In this document: positions 1,791 through 59,460 of the stretch, piece by piece
Numbering within the stretch: position 1 is the stretch's first letter
Layout: each line of letters starts with the position of its first letter
Assembly: GCA_016187125.1 (NCBI GenBank)
Contig: JACPKF010000009.1
Span: 11,855-75,854 of the forward strand
Direction of reading: 5' to 3'
DNA: 64,000 nucleotides
Source of the DNA: Candidatus Saccharimonadota bacterium
Lineage (GTDB): Bacteria > Patescibacteriota > Saccharimonadia > Saccharimonadales > UBA10212
Notes under the pieces: generated by a model
Told to the model about the DNA's origin: nothing
The model's database searches: none
What the model saw: the letters and a program-made list of their open reading frames with translations, nothing else
Program-made: the position numbers and the translations under genes

Positions 1791-2006
1791 GTTCGCTGTG
1801 TTATTAGTCCTCGATTTAGGTGAGTAACCAAGCTTGCAACTTGGTCTAGTTATTAATAATACATATGAATCGAACAGCAATTTTTGCAGCTGAGAATAAT
1901 ACAGTTAAAAATTATGGAAACCGAAGTTGACCACCAAAACGACCTTTTCATTTCGCCCAACAACTAATTTATTCCGACTTTTTTATCTTTCGTTTACTTT
2001 TACTTT

Positions 2007-2050
2007 ACTCCCCTATTCCTATATTCTATAGAATATAGGAATAGGGGAGT
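2007..2050. promoter_or_regulatory. perfect 44-bp palindrome, candidate operator of the ArsR-family gene
   Basis: ACTCCCCTATTCCTATATTCTA / TAGAATATAGGAATAGGGGAGT, 22+22 nt with no mismatch, ending 2 nt before ATG 2053. Confidence 0.6.
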
Positions 2051-2052
2051 AA

Positions 2053-2322
2053 ATGTTGGACATCAAGGAGGTGGAGAAGATAGCCAAGGGGCTCGCGAAT
2101 CATAACCGGATCAAAATTCTACTGGCTTTGGATAAAGAACCGGACATGACCCTGTTCGATATAGCAGGTGAGATAAAAACTGGTTTTAGAAATGTTAGCG
2201 AGCATTCGCGAAAGCTGGTTGCTGGCGGACTGATAACCAAAAAGTACCGAGGCCAAGCTGTCGAGCACAGGCTAACTCAGCGTGGCAAGGAAGCCTTGCG
2301 ATTTTGCAAAGTGATAAAATAA
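2053..2322 (+). CDS. ArsR/SmtB-family winged-helix transcriptional regulator
   Basis: 89 aa with an ArsR-like HTH pattern (LANHNRIKILLAL ... DIAGEI ... VSEHSRKLVAGGLI). Confidence 0.8.
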   Translation: MLDIKEVEKIAKGLANHNRIKILLALDKEPDMTLFDIAGEIKTGFRNVSEHSRKLVAGGLITKKYRGQAVEHRLTQRGKEALRFCKVIK

Positions 2323-2326
2323 CCTC

Positions 2327-2491
2327 ATGAGCAGCCAAACTGCCATCTTTGCCGCGGGGTGTTTTTGGGGTGATCGGCGGCTTCGCCTTATGAGACAAAC
2401 TAAGTTTTTCTCATCACGCCGGGCGCGAGATGAATCCGACGCTCGGGCTGCTCTTTTCCTAGCTCCAAGTGAGGAGCAGAAATCGAAATGA
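2327..2491 (+). pseudogene. 54-codon ORF whose first 15 codons duplicate the MsrA N-terminus (relic or uORF)
   Basis: Translates MSSQTAIFAAGCFWG, then unrelated basic sequence. Its TGA overlaps the msrA ATG (ATGA at 2488-2491). Confidence 0.45.
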
Positions 2492-2973
2492 AAAAGACTG
2501 CGGTATTTGCTGCTGGCTGCTTCTGGGGAGTGCAATATTATTTTGACCAAATACCCGGGGTTTTAAAGACCGAGGCTGGCTACACTGGCGGCCATACTGA
2601 AAATCCATCTTATGAACAGGTTTGTAGCCACAGTACCGGTCATGCCGAAGCCATCAAAATTGTCTTTGATCCGGTAGAAGTTAGTTATGAAACTTTGTTA
2701 AAACAATTTTTCCGGATACACGACCCAACCCAAATAAATCGCCAAGGCCCTGACGTAGGGGATCAATACCGTTCAGCCATTTTTTACACTTCTGCCGAGC
2801 AAAAAAAAGCGGCTCAGAAAATTATCGACGAACTTAACAAAGAAAAATTTGACGGTAAGATTGTCACGGCGCTTGAACCAGCCGGAAAGTGGTGGCCAGC
2901 CGAAGCCTATCACCAGAGATATACTGCTAGGACAGGTTTAGGTATCTGTCATGTAGCTTACGCTCCAATTTAG
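2488..2973 (+). CDS. msrA: peptide-methionine (S)-S-oxide reductase
   Basis: 161 aa with the GCFWG active-site motif near the N-terminus and MsrA-like sequence throughout. Confidence 0.92.
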   Translation: MKKTAVFAAGCFWGVQYYFDQIPGVLKTEAGYTGGHTENPSYEQVCSHSTGHAEAIKIVFDPVEVSYETLLKQFFRIHDPTQINRQGPDVGDQYRSAIFYTSAEQKKAAQKIIDELNKEKFDGKIVTALEPAGKWWPAEAYHQRYTARTGLGICHVAYAPI

Positions 2974-2988
2974 GTTGAGGGAATGCTT

Positions 2989-3062
2989 GCCCAGTAGTAG
3001 ACTTTCGCGTATTTTACAAACTATCCGCTATAGCGGATAGTCGCGAAAGCTCACTACTGGGC
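2989..3062. repeat. nested-palindrome element, family A, copy 1
   Basis: Outer arms GCCCAGTAGTAGACTTTCGCG / CGCGAAAGCTCACTACTGGGC enclose the inner hairpin CTATCCGC-TATA-GCGGATAG. Confidence 0.85.
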
Positions 3063-3068
3063 TTGCCC

Positions 3069-3137
3069 CGCACTAAATCCTGAAGCGAGAAGAGAGAGTC
3101 CGCCAGCCGGCGGATCGAGCATCAAGGTTTTAGTGCG
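3069..3137. repeat. second nested palindrome in the same spacer
   Basis: Outer 9-bp stem CGCACTAAA / TTTAGTGCG around the inner hairpin TCCGCC-AGCC-GGCGGA (3099-3114). Confidence 0.7.
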
Positions 3138-3166
3138 TGGGTGCCATGTTCCATATCAACCTATTT

Positions 3167-3248
3167 AGAGGTCTGTCCTTGGAAAAAACAAAGAGATTTT
3201 TTGTAAAATCACTAAATTTTTCATATTTTTTTCCAAGGACAGACCTCT
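3167..3248. repeat. long-hairpin element, family B, copy 1
   Basis: 22-nt arms AGAGGTCTGTCCTTGGAAAAAA / TTTTTTCCAAGGACAGACCTCT. The loop carries the inner hairpin GATTTT-TTGT-AAAATC. Lies directly 3' of the PEBP gene stop. Confidence 0.85.
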
Positions 3249-3252
3249 TTTA

Positions 3253-3795
3253 CTATTGGGCACTAAAAAGACCAATTAAAGTATGTTTAGCAAGAATGTG
3301 GCCTTGCATGGCTTTTTGCAGCTGGTCGCGGTTGGTAGCCGGCGGCAAGCTTAAAGTTTTGTCCAGGGCGTGAAGTTCGAACATATAACGATGGGTGCCG
3401 GTACCGGCCGGCGGGCAGGGGCCCATGTAGCCATTTTTGCCGCCGTCGTTAACTCCTTGAATGGCTCCGTCCGGAACCATGTTGACATCAATATTGGCAA
3501 CCGACATCGGCATGTCCCACATTATCCAGTGCACAAAGTCACCAGATACAGCATCGGGATCATGGACAACTAGAGCCAAACTTTTAGCGCTGGCAGGAAT
3601 ACCCACAATATTGAGTGGTGGATTAACATTTTGACCCTTGCAGGTATAAGTCGCAGGGATCGCTTCGCCATCCTTAAAAACCGGACTGCCCAGTCGCAGG
3701 TTAGTTTTGGTTAGATCATTACCGTTACTCATTTGTTTATCTCCTTCACTTTTAGTGCTAATAAATCCCAAAATAATAGTGGCGATAGTAACCAC
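3253..3795 (-). CDS. PEBP/YbhB-family (Raf-kinase-inhibitor-like) protein, membrane-anchored or secreted
   Basis: PEBP signatures (VHDPDA, GPCPPAGTGTHRY) after a hydrophobic N-terminus. Starts at GTG; see the finding on the in-frame TGA just upstream. Confidence 0.85.
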   Translation of the reverse strand: MVTIATIILGFISTKSEGDKQMSNGNDLTKTNLRLGSPVFKDGEAIPATYTCKGQNVNPPLNIVGIPASAKSLALVVHDPDAVSGDFVHWIMWDMPMSVANIDVNMVPDGAIQGVNDGGKNGYMGPCPPAGTGTHRYMFELHALDKTLSLPPATNRDQLQKAMQGHILAKHTLIGLFSAQ

Positions 3796-4944: not shown

Positions 4945-4960
4945 ACTGCCTGACCCAGCT

Positions 4961-5016
4961 CTTAGCGCCGAGTGCTTCGCAACTATCCGCCACAGGCGGA
5001 TAGTCTCGGCGCTAAG
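4961..5016. repeat. nested palindrome, related in architecture to family A
   Basis: Outer arms CTTAGCGCCGAG / CTCGGCGCTAAG around the inner hairpin CTATCCGCC-ACA-GGCGGATAG, which has the same core as copy 1 of family A. Confidence 0.75.
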
Positions 5017-5041
5017 TGTTGGACTGATACAATACTAACTA

Positions 5042-5809: not shown

Positions 5810-5811
5810 CT

Positions 5812-5848
5812 ATTTCCAGGGTACGACCCTGGAAATGACCCTGGAAAT
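5812..5848. repeat. REP-like hairpin (left) with duplicated right arm
   Basis: ATTTCCAGGGT-ACG-ACCCTGGAAAT, then a second GACCCTGGAAAT. Confidence 0.85.
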
Positions 5849-5862
5849 GCAGGAATATTGTG

Positions 5863-6477
5863 TTAATAGTTCGCTAGCTCCTCTTTGATTTCATCGAACA
5901 TTTTTTTGTGATTTTCGTAATCCTCTACAAATTTTCTATAATCTATTCGACCGTCAAAGAATTCGAGAATGCTATCGGGCTTCAGCCATTCGGCTTTTTG
6001 ACGTCCTAAATAAAAGGGCAGGCTAGAAAAAGCCCAGCGTTCATAGTTTTTGGGGTTTAAGTGTATATAGCGCGAAATATGCATTAAATAGTTGTCTCGA
6101 TCAATCATGGAGGCCTTAAAACGGCCTTGAAAAACTGGTCCCACGCATTTGTACTTCTTATTGAAGTACATTCCATAAGTAGTTATGACTGATTTAAATA
6201 ACTTTGTCATCGCATCGGAGTTGCGTTGGTAAATAAGTGCGTGAAAATGGTTGGGCATCAGACAAAACACTAAAAGGTCCACCTCTTTTTGTAGCCACGG
6301 ATACTCTCGACCTTTTTTGTCCTGCACAGGCTTGTTGCTTAAGTATCTTTTAAAAAGATTTAAAAACACAGCATAGTCATCGTCATCTCGAAAAACAACC
6401 CCTTTATTGTGGCCCCGTCCATAAACATGATAGTAGCTTTCTTCAAGATAAATTTTATTAACGTTCCTGCCAGGCAT
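5863..6477 (-). CDS. IS200/IS605-type Y1 HUH transposase, REP-associated (RAYT-like)
   Basis: YHVYGRG, LMPNHFHALI (HUH), GPVFQGRF and RYIHLNP motifs. TAGTAT -10 box lies 6 nt before the ATG. Confidence 0.85.
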   Translation of the reverse strand: MPGRNVNKIYLEESYYHVYGRGHNKGVVFRDDDDYAVFLNLFKRYLSNKPVQDKKGREYPWLQKEVDLLVFCLMPNHFHALIYQRNSDAMTKLFKSVITTYGMYFNKKYKCVGPVFQGRFKASMIDRDNYLMHISRYIHLNPKNYERWAFSSLPFYLGRQKAEWLKPDSILEFFDGRIDYRKFVEDYENHKKMFDEIKEELANY

Positions 6478-6503
6478 AAAAATATACTAACAACATATTC
6501 CCT

Positions 6504-6532
6504 CTATTTCCAGGGTCCGACCCTGGAAATAG
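6504..6532. repeat. REP-like hairpin (right)
   Basis: CTATTTCCAGGGT-CCG-ACCCTGGAAATAG, a 13-bp perfect stem. Confidence 0.85.
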
Positions 6533-6555
6533 AAGACGGAATGTAAAATAGGGAT

Positions 6556-15498: not shown

Positions 15499-15582
15499 GA
15501 GGTCTGCCCTTGCAAAAAGAAAGATAGGTAAAATCTGGTGATTTTGCGCAAAATCTCTTTACTTTTGGCAAGGGCAGACCTC
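15499..15582. repeat. long-hairpin element, family B, copy 2 (inverted relative to copy 1)
   Basis: Arms GAGGTCTGCCCTTGCAAAAAG / CTTTTGGCAAGGGCAGACCTC. The loop is the reverse complement of the copy 1 loop (AAAGAGATTTT-N4-AAAATCAC). Confidence 0.85.
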
Positions 15583-16920: not shown

Positions 16921-17016
16921 TTGGGGTTTGTTCACTCTTTTCGACTCACTTAACAGAATGCCTATATCCAATCAGGGCTCGTCAGATGTCCGGGAAAAAT
17001 AAGGCGAATGATCTTT

Positions 17017-17092
17017 GCCCAGTAGTAGACTTTCGCGACTGTCCGCCATAAGCGGACACTTTCGCGAAGCGACGCGAAAGCTCACTACTGGG
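17017..17092. repeat. nested-palindrome element, family A, copy 2
   Basis: Left arm identical to copy 1 (GCCCAGTAGTAGACTTTCGCG), inner hairpin TGTCCGCC-ATAA-GCGGACA, right arm CGCGAAAGCTCACTACTGGG. Confidence 0.85.
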
Positions 17093-17131
17093 TTTGATAT
17101 AATTAAGCGTAAGTAATTTGGGAGACTATCA

Positions 17132-39078: not shown

Positions 39079-39095
39079 GCTCACTACTGGGTTTG
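39079..39095. repeat. solo right arm of family A
   Basis: GCTCACTACTGGGTTTG is identical to 17080-17096. Confidence 0.7.
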
Positions 39096-39361
39096 TTACA
39101 ATAAGATTTTACCCGCCGAAACTTCTCACCGTTAGTATGTTACGCCATAGAGCTAAAAACGCCTATTCTAGCCAAATTTACAAATACCTGAGACAATCAT
39201 TCCATAATATGGTGAAAAAAGGTGTGTTTTACCCACCGAAACTTTCTATCACAAAATGTATGGATATTACGCATAAATGAAGAAAACTAACTATTCCGGA
39301 AGCTATCTTTCATACCTGATCAAATCGCTACATAATAAGATAGAAAGTTTAGGTGGGTGAA

Positions 39362-40639
39362 ATGCCAGAAGATACTAAAAAAACATTTCCTAAAGATTTT
39401 TTGTGGGGCGCCAGTACCTCAGCTCATCAGGTCGAGGGCGGCAACCATAACGACTGGACAGTTTGGGAACGGGCTTACGCTGCGGAGCTGGCCAAAAGCG
39501 CCGCCAGCCGCTTGAGCCATATTCCGCTGTGGCCGGAAATTAAAACTCGCGCCCAAGATCCCGATAACTACATTAGCGGGCGGGGTGTTGAGCATTATAA
39601 GCGCTTTGAAGAGGATTTTGATATTGCCAAGAATCTGAATTTTAACGCCTTCCGCTTTGGTATTGAGTGGTCGCGGATCGAGCCTGAGGAAGGGCAGTGG
39701 GACCAGGAGGCTCTAGATCATTACCGCCGCTACATTGAGCAACTTAAAAAACGCGGCCTAGAGCCAGTTGTTAATCTCTGGCACTACAGCTTGCCGGTCT
39801 GGTTTGCTAAAAAAGGCGGCTTTAAACATCGAAAAAATCTGCGTTATTTTGACCGGTATGTGGGACTTATCGCCAAAGAATATGGCCATTTATTAACCCA
39901 CGTTATTACTATCAATGAACCAAATGTTTATGCAACCTTTGGCTACTTAACTAGAGAGCGATTAACAGTTCAGTGGCCGCCCCAGGAAAAAAACGCCGTC
40001 AGTTTTGGGCGTGTTTATTGGAACCTGACACAAGCCCACCGGCGGGCTTATAAAATTCTTAAAGCAGCCCATCCCAAACTGCAGGTTGGGATTGCCGACC
40101 AGTTGGCCAATATTCAGGCTAAACGGCCGCATAACCAGTTAGACGAGCTAACTACTAAAAGCATGCGCTATTTTTGGAACTGGTGGTTTTTGCAGCGTAT
40201 CCGTAAAGAGCAGGATTTTGTGGGTTTTAATTATTACTTTACTGATTACTATACCAAACTGGGCCAGCTTCAAAACCCCAAACTGCCGCTTAATGACTTG
40301 GGTTGGTATATGGAGCCGGAAGGCCTATACCCACTACTTCTACGAGTTTGGGCTCGTTATAAAAGACCAATCATTGTGGCCGAAAACGGGGTAGCCGATG
40401 CTCATGACCAGTATCGCCGCTGGTGGATAGAGGAAACTATCGTGGCTATGGAGAGGGCTATTAGCGAAGGTGTTGATGTTCGAGGCTATTTTCACTGGAG
40501 CCTGCTTGATAATTTTGAGTGGGCTTATGGTTGGTGGCCAAAATTTGGTTTGGTGGCGGTTGACCGTGAGAACGGTATGAAACGGACCGTTCGGGCCAGC
40601 GCTAAGTGGTTCGGAGAAAAAATCGGGAAAATTTCATAA
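39362..40639 (+). CDS. GH1 beta-glucosidase
   Basis: Catalytic NEP (ITINEPN) and ENG (VAENGVAD) motifs. AGGTGG RBS precedes ATG 39362. Confidence 0.88.
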   Translation: MPEDTKKTFPKDFLWGASTSAHQVEGGNHNDWTVWERAYAAELAKSAASRLSHIPLWPEIKTRAQDPDNYISGRGVEHYKRFEEDFDIAKNLNFNAFRFGIEWSRIEPEEGQWDQEALDHYRRYIEQLKKRGLEPVVNLWHYSLPVWFAKKGGFKHRKNLRYFDRYVGLIAKEYGHLLTHVITINEPNVYATFGYLTRERLTVQWPPQEKNAVSFGRVYWNLTQAHRRAYKILKAAHPKLQVGIADQLANIQAKRPHNQLDELTTKSMRYFWNWWFLQRIRKEQDFVGFNYYFTDYYTKLGQLQNPKLPLNDLGWYMEPEGLYPLLLRVWARYKRPIIVAENGVADAHDQYRRWWIEETIVAMERAISEGVDVRGYFHWSLLDNFEWAYGWWPKFGLVAVDRENGMKRTVRASAKWFGEKIGKIS

Positions 40640-41591: not shown

Positions 41592-41660
41592 GCCCAGCAG
41601 TAAGATCTCGCAATATTCGCTATCGCGAATATTTGAGGAAGACGCGAGCTCTACAGCTGG
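41592..41660. repeat. diverged family A-like nested palindrome
   Basis: Arms GCCCAGCAGTAAGATCTCGC / GCGAGCTCTACAGCTGG around the inner hairpin AATATTCGC-TATC-GCGAATATT. Confidence 0.65.
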
Positions 41661-41943
41661 ATAAATAAATTAGAGAACCAACATGAGTTACGCATCTGAT
41701 TTCCTCGGTTATCGGGAAGAGCAGGAGCGGTCCGCCGTAGGCGGATTCGGATTCATTCCGAAAGCGACGATGGGAAACTCCGAAGGGGTGTCCCATTACC
41801 CTCAAGGTTAGCTAATTGGCAGTCAGCCGGTGGGTAATTAGGGTAACATCGTTAACAACACCCTTGTTCATTTTTCAATGTAACACCTCCCAAAACTCCA
41901 CCTCACAAAGTCTCTCACAAGAACTTTAGGAGCCTAGCAGCAA

Positions 41944-42133
41944 GTCCCACCCAATTTGCCTAGCAAATTGGGGAACCCAAATTCATAAATTTGGGTGGGA
42001 CGCGCTCTGAGCTCCACATAAAAACAAAAAACCCCAAAAACAAAAAGCTGGCTGCTAATTAGGTGACCTTGTTCACCCCCACCCAAATTTATGAATTTGG
42101 GTTCCCCAATTTACTCAAGTAAATTGGGTGGGG
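41944..42133. repeat. composite element: two 58-nt CCCACCCAATTT-type modules in inverted orientation around a 74-nt core
   Basis: 41944-42001 is the reverse complement of 42076-42133 except for one hairpin loop. Each module holds two hairpins. Confidence 0.85.
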
Positions 42134-43219: not shown

Positions 43220-43250
43220 CCCACCCAATTTTGTAAAAAAATTGGGTGGG
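43220..43250. repeat. CCCACCCAATTT-family hairpin
   Basis: CCCACCCAATTTT-GTAAA-AAAATTGGGTGGG, a 13-bp perfect stem. Confidence 0.85.
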
Positions 43251-43298: not shown

Positions 43299-43646
43299 AT
43301 GACATATTCAAGCTCAGTATCATACGCTCGTCGAGGTTACGGTCGTCGTAATCAAAACGCTGTATCGCTTATGGCTACCACCAAAAGTCTTGGGCCGGTG
43401 AGCAACACAATCATCCTGATTGTTTTAGCTTGCCTAATAGGTTTGCTATACCTTACACAGGTCACCAAGACTAACAGTTACGGCTATACTATTAATGGCT
43501 TGCAAAAGCAACAAAAAGATCTGCAGCGCCAGAAGGCTGATTTAGAGATTAGCTCAGCTAGACTGCAATCACTTGAGCGCGTAGTCAATAGCAACGCTGC
43601 CAAGAGTTTAGTCTCGGTTGCGCCCTTAGGTACTATTTCCCAATAG
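43299..43646 (+). CDS. ftsL: FtsL-like bitopic division protein
   Basis: 115 aa with one TM helix then a coiled coil, located between rsmH and ftsI. Confidence 0.65.
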   Translation: MTYSSSVSYARRGYGRRNQNAVSLMATTKSLGPVSNTIILIVLACLIGLLYLTQVTKTNSYGYTINGLQKQQKDLQRQKADLEISSARLQSLERVVNSNAAKSLVSVAPLGTISQ

Positions 43647-43678
43647 TAGATTTTCCGAGCTGAAAATCTACTGTTGGG
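43639..43678. repeat. family A-like hairpin overlapping the ftsL stop
   Basis: CCCAATAGTAGATTTT-8 nt-AAAATCTACTGTTGGG. The arms resemble the family A arm CCCAGTAGTAGACTTT. Confidence 0.7.
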
Positions 43679-59376: not shown

Positions 59377-59460
59377 TCCCACCCAATTTTTTGGTTTTAA
59401 CTTGAGTATAGTAACCAAATTTAATTAATACAATTGTTTAAGCTTAAAAATTGGGTGGGA
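59377..59460. repeat. CCCACCCAATTT-family element with 15-bp perfect arms
   Basis: TCCCACCCAATTTTT-54 nt-AAAAATTGGGTGGGA. The interior shares ACTTGAGTA with the module at 42076-42133. Confidence 0.85.

Follow-up and report, generated by a model that had tools for sequence, protein, structure and literature searches.

A short nested-palindrome element with hairpin interior, a probable MITE, is widespread in Saccharibacteria

Two convergent genes of the window (the whole stretch of 64,000 nucleotides analysed here), msrA (2488-2973, + strand) and a PEBP/YbhB-family gene (3253-3732, - strand), are separated by a 279-bp spacer filled with palindromes, which raises the question of what these palindromes are and how they came to lie there. 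With a G+C content of about 45%, the window comes from a Saccharibacteria genome, and its genes have housekeeping roles (secA, serS, prfA, the dcw cluster, topA and others). The Saccharibacteria live as ultra-small epibionts, and their genomes of about 1 Mb are usually called streamlined. Three distinct nested palindromes lie side by side in the spacer, at 2989-3062 (A1), 3066-3141 (B) and 3167-3248 (C), where an earlier note on this DNA had put them. In three related loci (L094, L095 and L096), with MsrA proteins of 78-79% identity, the stop codons of msrA and the PEBP gene overlap by 4 nt (TTAA or CTAG), and the whole spacer of the window is therefore inserted DNA. It consists of elements of 72, 76 and 82 bp, two 4-bp CTTG duplicates and about 41 bp that are unassigned. 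Such a spacer would be produced by three palindromic elements piling up between the two genes.

The first palindrome belongs to a dispersed family, here called family A, whose members in the window are collected in Table 1. Its arms (2989-3009 and 3042-3062) are 21 nt long, 86% complementary, and enclose a perfect 11+11 hairpin. Folded as DNA, A1 reaches -25.3 kcal/mol (z -9.6) and the second full copy, A2, -27.6 kcal/mol; folds of family A lie at -25 to -29 kcal/mol, with z from -8 to -9.6 against shuffled sequence. The interior of A2 likewise holds a hairpin, GTCCGCC-ATAA-GCGGAC, together with a mini-hairpin, TCGC-GAA-GCGA. The left arm of A1, the 21-mer GCCCAGTAGTAGACTTTCGCG, was said in the earlier note to be identical over 21 nt at 17017, and it does recur exactly at 17017-17037; the same 21-mer also matches the opposite arm of A1 (3042-3062) with 3 mismatches. 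Allowing up to 3 mismatches, it has three matches in the window and none in 100 shuffles. The other members named in that note are confirmed too. The solo arm at 39079-39095 is identical to 17080-17096 at 17 of 17 positions, and the two diverged copies, given there as 41592-41660 and 43639-43678, are supported as decayed relatives by a covariance model trained on the two full window copies together with 41 from other loci. The former scores 28.7 bits (E about 2e-5) and has no recognisable target duplication, and the latter scores 30.7 bits on its arms only (E about 5e-6), lacks both an interior and a target duplication, and overlaps the stop codon (43644-43646) of the ORF at 43299-43646. As the earlier note had stated, all window copies are intergenic or, in this last case, overlap a stop codon.

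Table 1 Palindromic elements in the window, followed by family A copies inside genes at other loci
Feature	Position or locus	Strand	Remarks
A1 left target-site duplication	2986-2989		CTTG, read directly; recurs at 3062-3065
Family A copy A1, 72 bp	2990-3061		Covariance model 81.7 bits
A1 left end	2990-3009		CCCAGTAGTAGACTTTCGCG, AGA type
A1 interior	3010-3041		Hairpin ACTATCCGC-TATA-GCGGATAGT at 3020-3041
A1 right end	3042-3061		CGCGAAAGCTCACTACTGGG; reverse complement CCCAGTAGTGAGCTTTCGCG, GAG type
A1 right target-site duplication	3062-3065		CTTG; doubles as the YTTG ahead of the family B copy
Family B nested palindrome	3066-3141		CCCCGCACTAAATCCT ... AGGTTTTAGTGCGTGGG; inner hairpin TCCGCC-AGCC-GGCGGA
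Family C palindrome	3167-3248		22-nt perfect arms AGAGGTCTGTCCTTGGAAAAAA; interior non-palindromic
Variant family A member	4954-5023	-	Covariance model 37 bits, E about 1e-7; not reported in the earlier note
A2 left target-site duplication	17014-17017		TTTG
Family A copy A2, 75 bp	17018-17092		Covariance model 94.8 bits; AGA-type end, then interior, then GAG-type end
A2 right target-site duplication	17093-17096		TTTG; ATATAAT directly after
Solo right end	39079-39095		GCTCACTACTGGG + TTTG; remnant of a lost copy (end itself 39079-39091)
Decayed family member	41593-41661		CCCAGCAGTAAGATCTCGC ... GCGAGCTCTACAGCTGG; inner hairpin AATATTCGC-TATC-GCGAATATT
Short palindrome, arms only	43639-43678		CCCAATAGTAGATTTTC / GAAAATCTACTGTTGGG, 6-nt loop; both arms AGA type
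Copy in ribosomal protein S1 gene	L012		C-terminal tail (Pfam)
Copy in S20 gene	L090		C-terminal tail (Pfam)
Copy in L1 gene	L018		N-terminal extension (Pfam)
Copy in KhpB/Jag gene	L020		After R3H domain (Pfam)
Copy in L21 gene	L058		Insert splits L21 domain into two matched stretches (Pfam)
Copy in L21 gene	L041		Insert replaces gene start (Pfam)
Copy in seventh host ORF	L083		Lys-rich tail; reading frame only, Pfam covered the other six

The variant member shares the two-hairpin interior of the family (ACTATCCGCCTGTGGCGGATA + GTTGCGAAGCA on the - strand) but has other ends (CCCAGCTCTTAGCGCCGAG); CTGA stands on both sides of it, at 4950-4953 and 5024-5027. An orthologous copy with the same CTGA duplication is found in L094 (5443-5512), which makes the insertion an old one. 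The ends of this orthologous pair have gained mismatches, and such decay in an old copy argues against maintenance of the ends by the host.

Family A, very probably a MITE specific to Saccharibacteria, is both new and widespread. A scan of 185,579 species-representative genomes with the degenerate 20-mer CCCAGTAGTRRRCTTTCGCG yielded 15 loci with one to three exact matches per genome, 14 of them from named Candidatus Saccharibacteria, Saccharimonadales or Patescibacteria and one from an unclassified 'bacterium' MAG. The same pattern occurs in 74 metagenome contigs from soil, peat, rhizosphere and groundwater, so that many further copies exist beyond the window; it is absent from the viral contigs searched, and blastn with the whole element gave no match in plasmid or phage records. 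Pairing of the ends resulted in 78 non-identical copies at 63 distinct insertion sites, all found through one exact 20-bp end, and diverged copies are thus hidden from this count. Lengths of 71-91 bp were obtained for 69 copies, most of them 71-76 bp with a second group at 79-91 bp and all without coding capacity, and there are a few relatives of 159-162 bp with slightly different ends. No earlier report of a MITE in Saccharibacteria or Patescibacteria was found in the literature searched, the coverage of which was incomplete.

Flanking target duplications, a check that the earlier note had proposed, are present at most of the 63 sites. The 4-mers on the two sides of an element are identical in 45 of the 78 non-identical copies and agree at three of four positions in 13 more, and the control, the next four bases outward, gives a full match in none of the 78. 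Counted by distinct site, a perfect 4-bp duplication is found at 39 of 63 (about 0.25 expected by chance) and a three-of-four match at 12, and some of the remaining sites have 3- or 5-bp repeats such as TATAA, CAAAA or AAA. Short direct repeats flank all of the well-preserved copies, and the duplicated sequence varies among them, being CTTG and TTTG in the window and, among others, TCAA, CTAA, TAAG, CAGA, TTAT or CTGG elsewhere. Its consensus over 42 perfect cases is palindromic, g-YWWR-c, with G before the duplication in 21 and C after it in 26, as expected if the transposase acts as a complex with two-fold symmetry and cuts with a 4-bp stagger. Empty sites of three kinds are also seen. Where the orthologous L011 reads TTGA-element-TTGA, only one TTGA is present in L026, inside TTGACAAG; the L21 genes (rplU) of L058 and L041 carry their copies at different positions, each without the insert of the other; and the overlapping msrA and PEBP stop codons of L094, L095 and L096 stand opposite the filled spacer of the window. 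In addition, one locus, shared by L014, L047 and L066, shows a nested insertion, with a 74-bp copy lying within a 158-bp relative that is flanked by a repeat of its own. No insertion polymorphism was seen between near-identical strains.

Of 68 copies, about seven fall within genes, in long reading frames (Table 1). All seven are read in the same hydrophilic frame, PSS(E/R)LSR...TRK(S/L)TTG, and sit in Lys/Ala-rich tails or extensions. With lengths of 72 or 75 bp and runs of A (lysine codons) on their flanks, these copies add a net number of nucleotides that is divisible by three. A doubled 52-aa query of the element peptide against a protein database gave one match, a 64-aa R3H-domain fragment, and matches of 24 aa fall below significance. 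Rickettsia palindromic elements (RPE) are mobile repeats that likewise persist in frame in protein-coding genes, as do a few other MITEs (PMC10969869). Both RPE and family A add a hydrophilic peptide in frame, a likeness of behaviour, whereas RPE are about 100-150 bp long, mostly intragenic and found in another host phylum. The in-frame copies in essential ribosomal protein genes would amount to peptide segments added to the core machinery, as in Rickettsia, and may help explain odd ribosomal protein extensions in candidate phyla radiation (CPR) bacteria. Several copies lie exactly on -35 or -10-like promoter hexamers, and family A may therefore also rewire expression.

The two parts of the element are conserved in different ways. 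The 20-bp ends are complementary at 17 of 20 positions, begin with CCC and end with GGG (CCCAGTAGT(R3)C type). They differ in a 3-nt marker, one arm reading ...GT-AGA-C... and the reverse complement of the other ...GT-GAG-C..., in both full window copies and, with one AGA-type and one GAG-type arm each, in 70 of the 78 copies. The exceptions are point variants or pairs that span two neighbouring elements, and the perfect palindromes that AGA/AGA or GAG/GAG pairs would form are essentially absent. In an alignment of 41 short copies from other loci, oriented by the interior and counted for the pairs of a three-helix structure, the 20 outer pairs show no change on both sides and are conserved as sequence. 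Double changes occur in six of the seven pairs of hairpin 1 (TATCCGC...GCGGATA) and in three of the four pairs of hairpin 2 (TGGC-GAA-GCCA or TTGC-GAA-GCAA). The compensatory changes that the earlier note had asked after are thus found in the inner hairpins and not in the outer arms, and of its two-level fold the nested architecture and the covarying inner hairpins stand, while the outer level is kept as sequence. Pairwise identity is 95.8% for the ends (3-nt marker left out), a figure that is inflated because one arm per copy had to match the search pattern, compared with 68% for the interior and 34% for the loop of hairpin 1; the unselected arm seldom has more than two mismatches. Hairpins of the C-GAA-G type are frequent, with GCGAAGC in 15 of 68 copies and GCAAAGC in 13 of 68, and GCGAAAGC is present at the inner end of one arm type only. 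As DNA mini-hairpins, d(GCGAAGC) and d(GCGAAAGC) stand out for their exceptional stability.

Between these asymmetric ends, the interior is found in both orientations. When the 41 copies are all turned so that hairpin 1 of the interior comes first, 21 have a 5' arm of the AGA type and 20 one of the GAG type. The orientation itself is unambiguous, with alignment scores of 18-31 in the same sense (10 for the outlier L016) against at most 6 in reverse. For 20 of the 41 copies, the copy closest to it in interior sequence has its arms arranged the other way; L018_1060 and L041_10515, for example, differ at 2 of 32 interior positions and have their arms swapped. Since such near relatives have opposite arrangements, the interior has been inverted relative to the arm marker many times. 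Most simply, inversion would proceed by reciprocal exchange between the arms within the inner 8 bp (CTTTCGCG), which fits the outcome exactly and would have a parallel in organelle DNA, where hairpin loops are known to invert recurrently. Gene conversion would not give the observed arm arrangement. Among about 10 pairs of loci whose orthologous copies are nearly identical and come from different samples, none shows a flip, and the inversion is therefore not a rapid phase variation. As a compact natural case, the interior could serve the study of inversion between very short inverted repeats.

A similar fold is known from the inverted terminal repeats of the parvovirus AAV, which form a T shape of long outer arms enclosing two small hairpins and occur in flip and flop orientations. 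The similarity to family A in fold and orientations is one of analogy only. In AAV, terminal resolution inverts the whole hairpin at a genome end, and such a process would invert the arm marker along with the interior, contrary to what is observed; the interior of family A inverts relative to a marker within the arms, and does so at chromosomal sites with target duplications.

Taken together, family A is very probably a non-autonomous DNA transposon (MITE), one that presumably depends on a DDE-type enzyme provided in trans. Insertion takes place at a staggered cut, usually of 4 bp and sometimes of 3 or 5, at the palindromic g-YWWR-c target, and repair of this cut leaves the direct repeat that is seen to flank the copies. 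The transposase, presumably of the DDE type, would be supplied by an insertion sequence with matching ends. Ends would stay constant among dispersed copies because only copies that the transposase can bind multiply, and the interior would be retained as hairpins and not as sequence while being inverted repeatedly against the ends. The 20-bp ends, almost unchanged across many species, would imply an active or recently active transposase system in the lineage.

A partner element with such ends was sought as an end pair 0.4-4 kb apart enclosing an ORF, and none was found in the window and about 600 kb of fetched Saccharibacteria DNA; the only end pairs at 400-4000 bp in the 600 kb, whether or not their flanks match, are one made up of two distinct small elements (L030) and one due to chance (L026). 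Among 30 window ORFs compared with Pfam there is no DDE transposase, and only a Y1 gene was found. The ends have the features of the IS1380/piggyBac type, namely CCCAG...CTGGG termini and a 4-bp YWWR duplication with an A/T-rich centre, from which an IS1380/piggyBac-like enzyme may be guessed at as a candidate. Elements of the piggyBac type have CCC termini and a 4-bp TTAA duplication, with the variants TCAA, TAAA, CTAA and TTAG, and the IS1380 transposases are prokaryotic relatives of piggyBac (PMC10813416). These four variants, the CCC/GGG termini and the A/T-rich centre are shared with family A, although TTAA is a stricter target than YWWR, and the likeness lies solely in the sequence of the ends and the length of the duplication.

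A plain DDE cut-and-paste model leaves the compensatory changes of the interior unexplained. Alternatively, family A could owe its movement to a mechanism in which the single strand is recognised when folded into a three-way junction, which is considered unlikely here. Such a mechanism would agree with interior hairpins that are kept by compensatory change, with the mini-hairpin motifs GCGAAGC, GCAAAGC and GCGAAAGC, and with an interior orientation that is random relative to the arm asymmetry even between nearest relatives. Were it true, inversion would be a step of transposition and not an accident, and hairpin recognition would be combined with a staggered cut that generates duplications, a combination not described for bacterial transposons.

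It is very improbable that family A represents an immobile structured RNA or transcription terminator of the host, conserved for its fold. A very stable fold, compensatory changes in both inner hairpins and the position of many copies just downstream or upstream of genes would suit an RNA of this kind, but the outer helix shows no covariation, contrary to a structured RNA, and the flanks, read directly, have no U-tract. Because the direction of the interior is not tied to the asymmetry of the arms, half of the copies would have two A-C mismatches when transcribed, which counts against this explanation, as do the copies in frame within coding sequences. Rfam 15 has no match in the window at the gathering score, and at permissive thresholds the region 2900-3300 has only sub-threshold matches to miRNA-precursor hairpins. 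The related loci manage with overlapping msrA and PEBP genes and no spacer at all, and target duplications and empty sites show insertion, against an immobile RNA.

Even less probable is an origin of family A as REP/REPIN elements mobilised by a RAYT (a Y1 HUH transposase), with the spacer as a BIME-like mosaic. Short extragenic palindromes clustered in spacers near a RAYT-like gene are indeed what a REP/BIME or REPIN-RAYT system looks like, and the ends of family A contain GTAG. At a distance of 2.8 kb, 5863-6477 encodes a Y1_Tnp protein (Pfam 29.8 bits, cutoff 23), and this gene is flanked by inverted hairpins, as RAYTs are; it also matches the NCBIfam model REP_Tyr_transpos, but with 38.7 bits, below the cutoff of 80. 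However, its flanking hairpins (TTTCCAGGGTnCGACCCTGGAAA) have no relation to family A, and neither the window nor the loci contain any further copy of them. REPs and HUH single-strand transposition are not known to make target duplications, and the variable 4-bp duplications of family A largely refute an origin of this kind. The spacer palindromes, moreover, belong to three different families and are not alternating REPs of one. With three families side by side and target duplications present, the BIME-like label of the earlier note has to be dropped; its description of the family as MITE/REP-like stands for the dispersal and the MITE behaviour (target duplications and empty sites) and falls for the REP/BIME part. 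The Y1 gene, a candidate by its proximity, was accordingly rejected as the mobiliser of family A, as its flanking palindrome differs and HUH enzymes make no duplications. Integron attC-type folded single-strand sites used by a tyrosine recombinase are barely conceivable, since the attC-like architecture (an imperfect but conserved outer stem, a constant 3-nt mispair and a structured centre that varies) goes with arms that, read directly, lack a GTTRRRY/RYYYAAC core, with single, dispersed copies instead of cassette arrays, with no integrase adjacent in the window, and with flanking duplications that differ by copy, whereas site-specific crossover uses a fixed core.

As a non-autonomous transposon, family A has the same short, non-coding build as the MITEs described from other bacteria (Correia/CREE of Neisseria, ERIC, RUP, BOX, Nezha, and QMITE1/2 of Coxiella), with which it shares terminal inverted repeats, target duplications, dispersed copies, hairpin potential and occasional in-frame copies (PMC10969869). 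Unlike these, it occurs in another host phylum, is very small (72-75 bp) and encloses, between asymmetric ends, a conserved hairpin pair that can point in either direction. Its uncommon features are this hairpin interior, kept by compensatory change and lying either way, and its residence in frame in ribosomal protein genes. Family A could be used as a marker for strain typing and for the detection of assembly breaks in metagenome-assembled genomes.

The two other palindromes of the spacer are further families. Family C has a second copy in the window at 15499-15582 and a relative in L041 (10923-11002). Family B, with arms at 3066-3081 and 3125-3140 (those of the C palindrome lie at 3167-3204 and 3211-3248), resembles family A in its CCC(C/T)G-type ends, its length of about 75 bp and a hairpin like hairpin 1, while its end sequences differ; its DNA fold has a z of -5.7. 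Further copies of B are found in at least four other Saccharibacteria loci (L021/L074, L064, L091 and L007). No convincing target duplication was seen among the five copies of B and the three of C at hand. A YTTG precedes every family B copy, and as A1 landed exactly in the CTTG ahead of B, the B element was probably the earlier of the two.

Promoter-like hexamers adjoin many copies of family A, the short MITE with 20-bp ends and a two-hairpin interior. With CA or CC coming after the right-hand target duplication TTGA, the sequence reads TTGACA or TTGACC (L011 3221-3228, L091, L061, L072/L076 and L004/L051, all loci from other genomes or metagenome contigs), and TATAAT follows two copies (L030, L057). 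After window copy A2 comes TTTGATATAAT (17093-17103), which is extended -10-like. Family A seems either to insert into promoters or to be retained there. Among 68 copies, hairpin 2 of the interior is frequently GCGAAGC (15) or GCAAAGC (13), and GCGAAAGC is present on the strand bearing the complement of the GAG-type arm. As d(GCGAAGC) and d(GCGAAAGC) form DNA mini-hairpins of exceptional stability, a role of family A as single-stranded DNA is hinted at.

Palindromes and neighboring features discussed here (window positions unless a locus is named)
Feature	Position	Strand	Details
Perfect palindrome	2004-2053		50 bp, 25 + 25 nt, no spacer
Short ORF	2327-2491		directly upstream of msrA
Family B, second palindromic family	3066-3141; L021 7292; L074 4341; L064 1067; L091 1840; L007 1214
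Family C, third family	3167-3248; 15499-15582; L041 10923-11002		~82 bp
Additional palindromic family	39227-39362; 41939-42115; 43224-43246; 59377-59460		based on TCCCACCCAAWTTT / AAWTTGGGTGGGA
Mini-hairpin motifs	17062-17068; 3043-3050; alignment A3 (41 short copies)		family A interiors and arms
IS200-like unit	5811-6533		~723 bp
Inverted hairpin CTATTTCCAGGGTACGACCCTGGAAAT	5811-5850		one flank of Y1 gene; partial additional arm
Y1 (HUH) transposase gene	5863-6477	-	204 aa, inside the unit
Inverted hairpin TCTATTTCCAGGGTCCGACCCTGGAAATAGA	6503-6533		other flank of Y1 gene

Two other palindromic families share the msrA/PEBP spacer with a family A copy. Family B is conserved between Saccharibacteria loci, every copy having YTTG before it and T after it, and no target duplication was resolvable at the copies in the window, L021, L074, L064, L091 and L007. 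Its inner hairpin is similar to hairpin 1 of family A, and the two may form one superfamily. Family C has arms of (A)GAGGTCTGyCCTTGsAAAAA around a conserved, non-palindromic interior, GTGATTTTrCrmAAAATCTCTTT, and its two window copies lie in opposite orientation. The additional family includes a 38-nt pair, 97% complementary, in the mraZ-rsmH gap.

The stop codons of the convergent genes msrA and PEBP overlap by 4 nt in related Saccharibacteria, as TTAA or CTAG (L094 3486-3489, L095 3403-3406, L096 3486-3489); a spacer with a terminator is unnecessary at this junction. Upstream of msrA, a small gene of ArsR/HTH type (2053-2322) has its start codon where the perfect palindrome ends, and the palindrome is possibly an operator. 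The start of the following short ORF, MSSQTAIFAAGCFWG, is similar to the MsrA N-terminus, MKKTAVFAAGCFWG, and the ORF looks like a leftover of a duplicated msrA 5' end.

The product of the Y1 gene scores above the Pfam Y1_Tnp threshold and under the cutoff of the NCBIfam RAYT model. At the position of this unit in relatives L094 and L095, a NUDIX gene instead follows the PDDEXK gene. An arm portion of family C, TTTCCAAGGACAGACC, is loosely similar to a hairpin flanking the Y1 gene, TTTCCAGGGTCCGACC.
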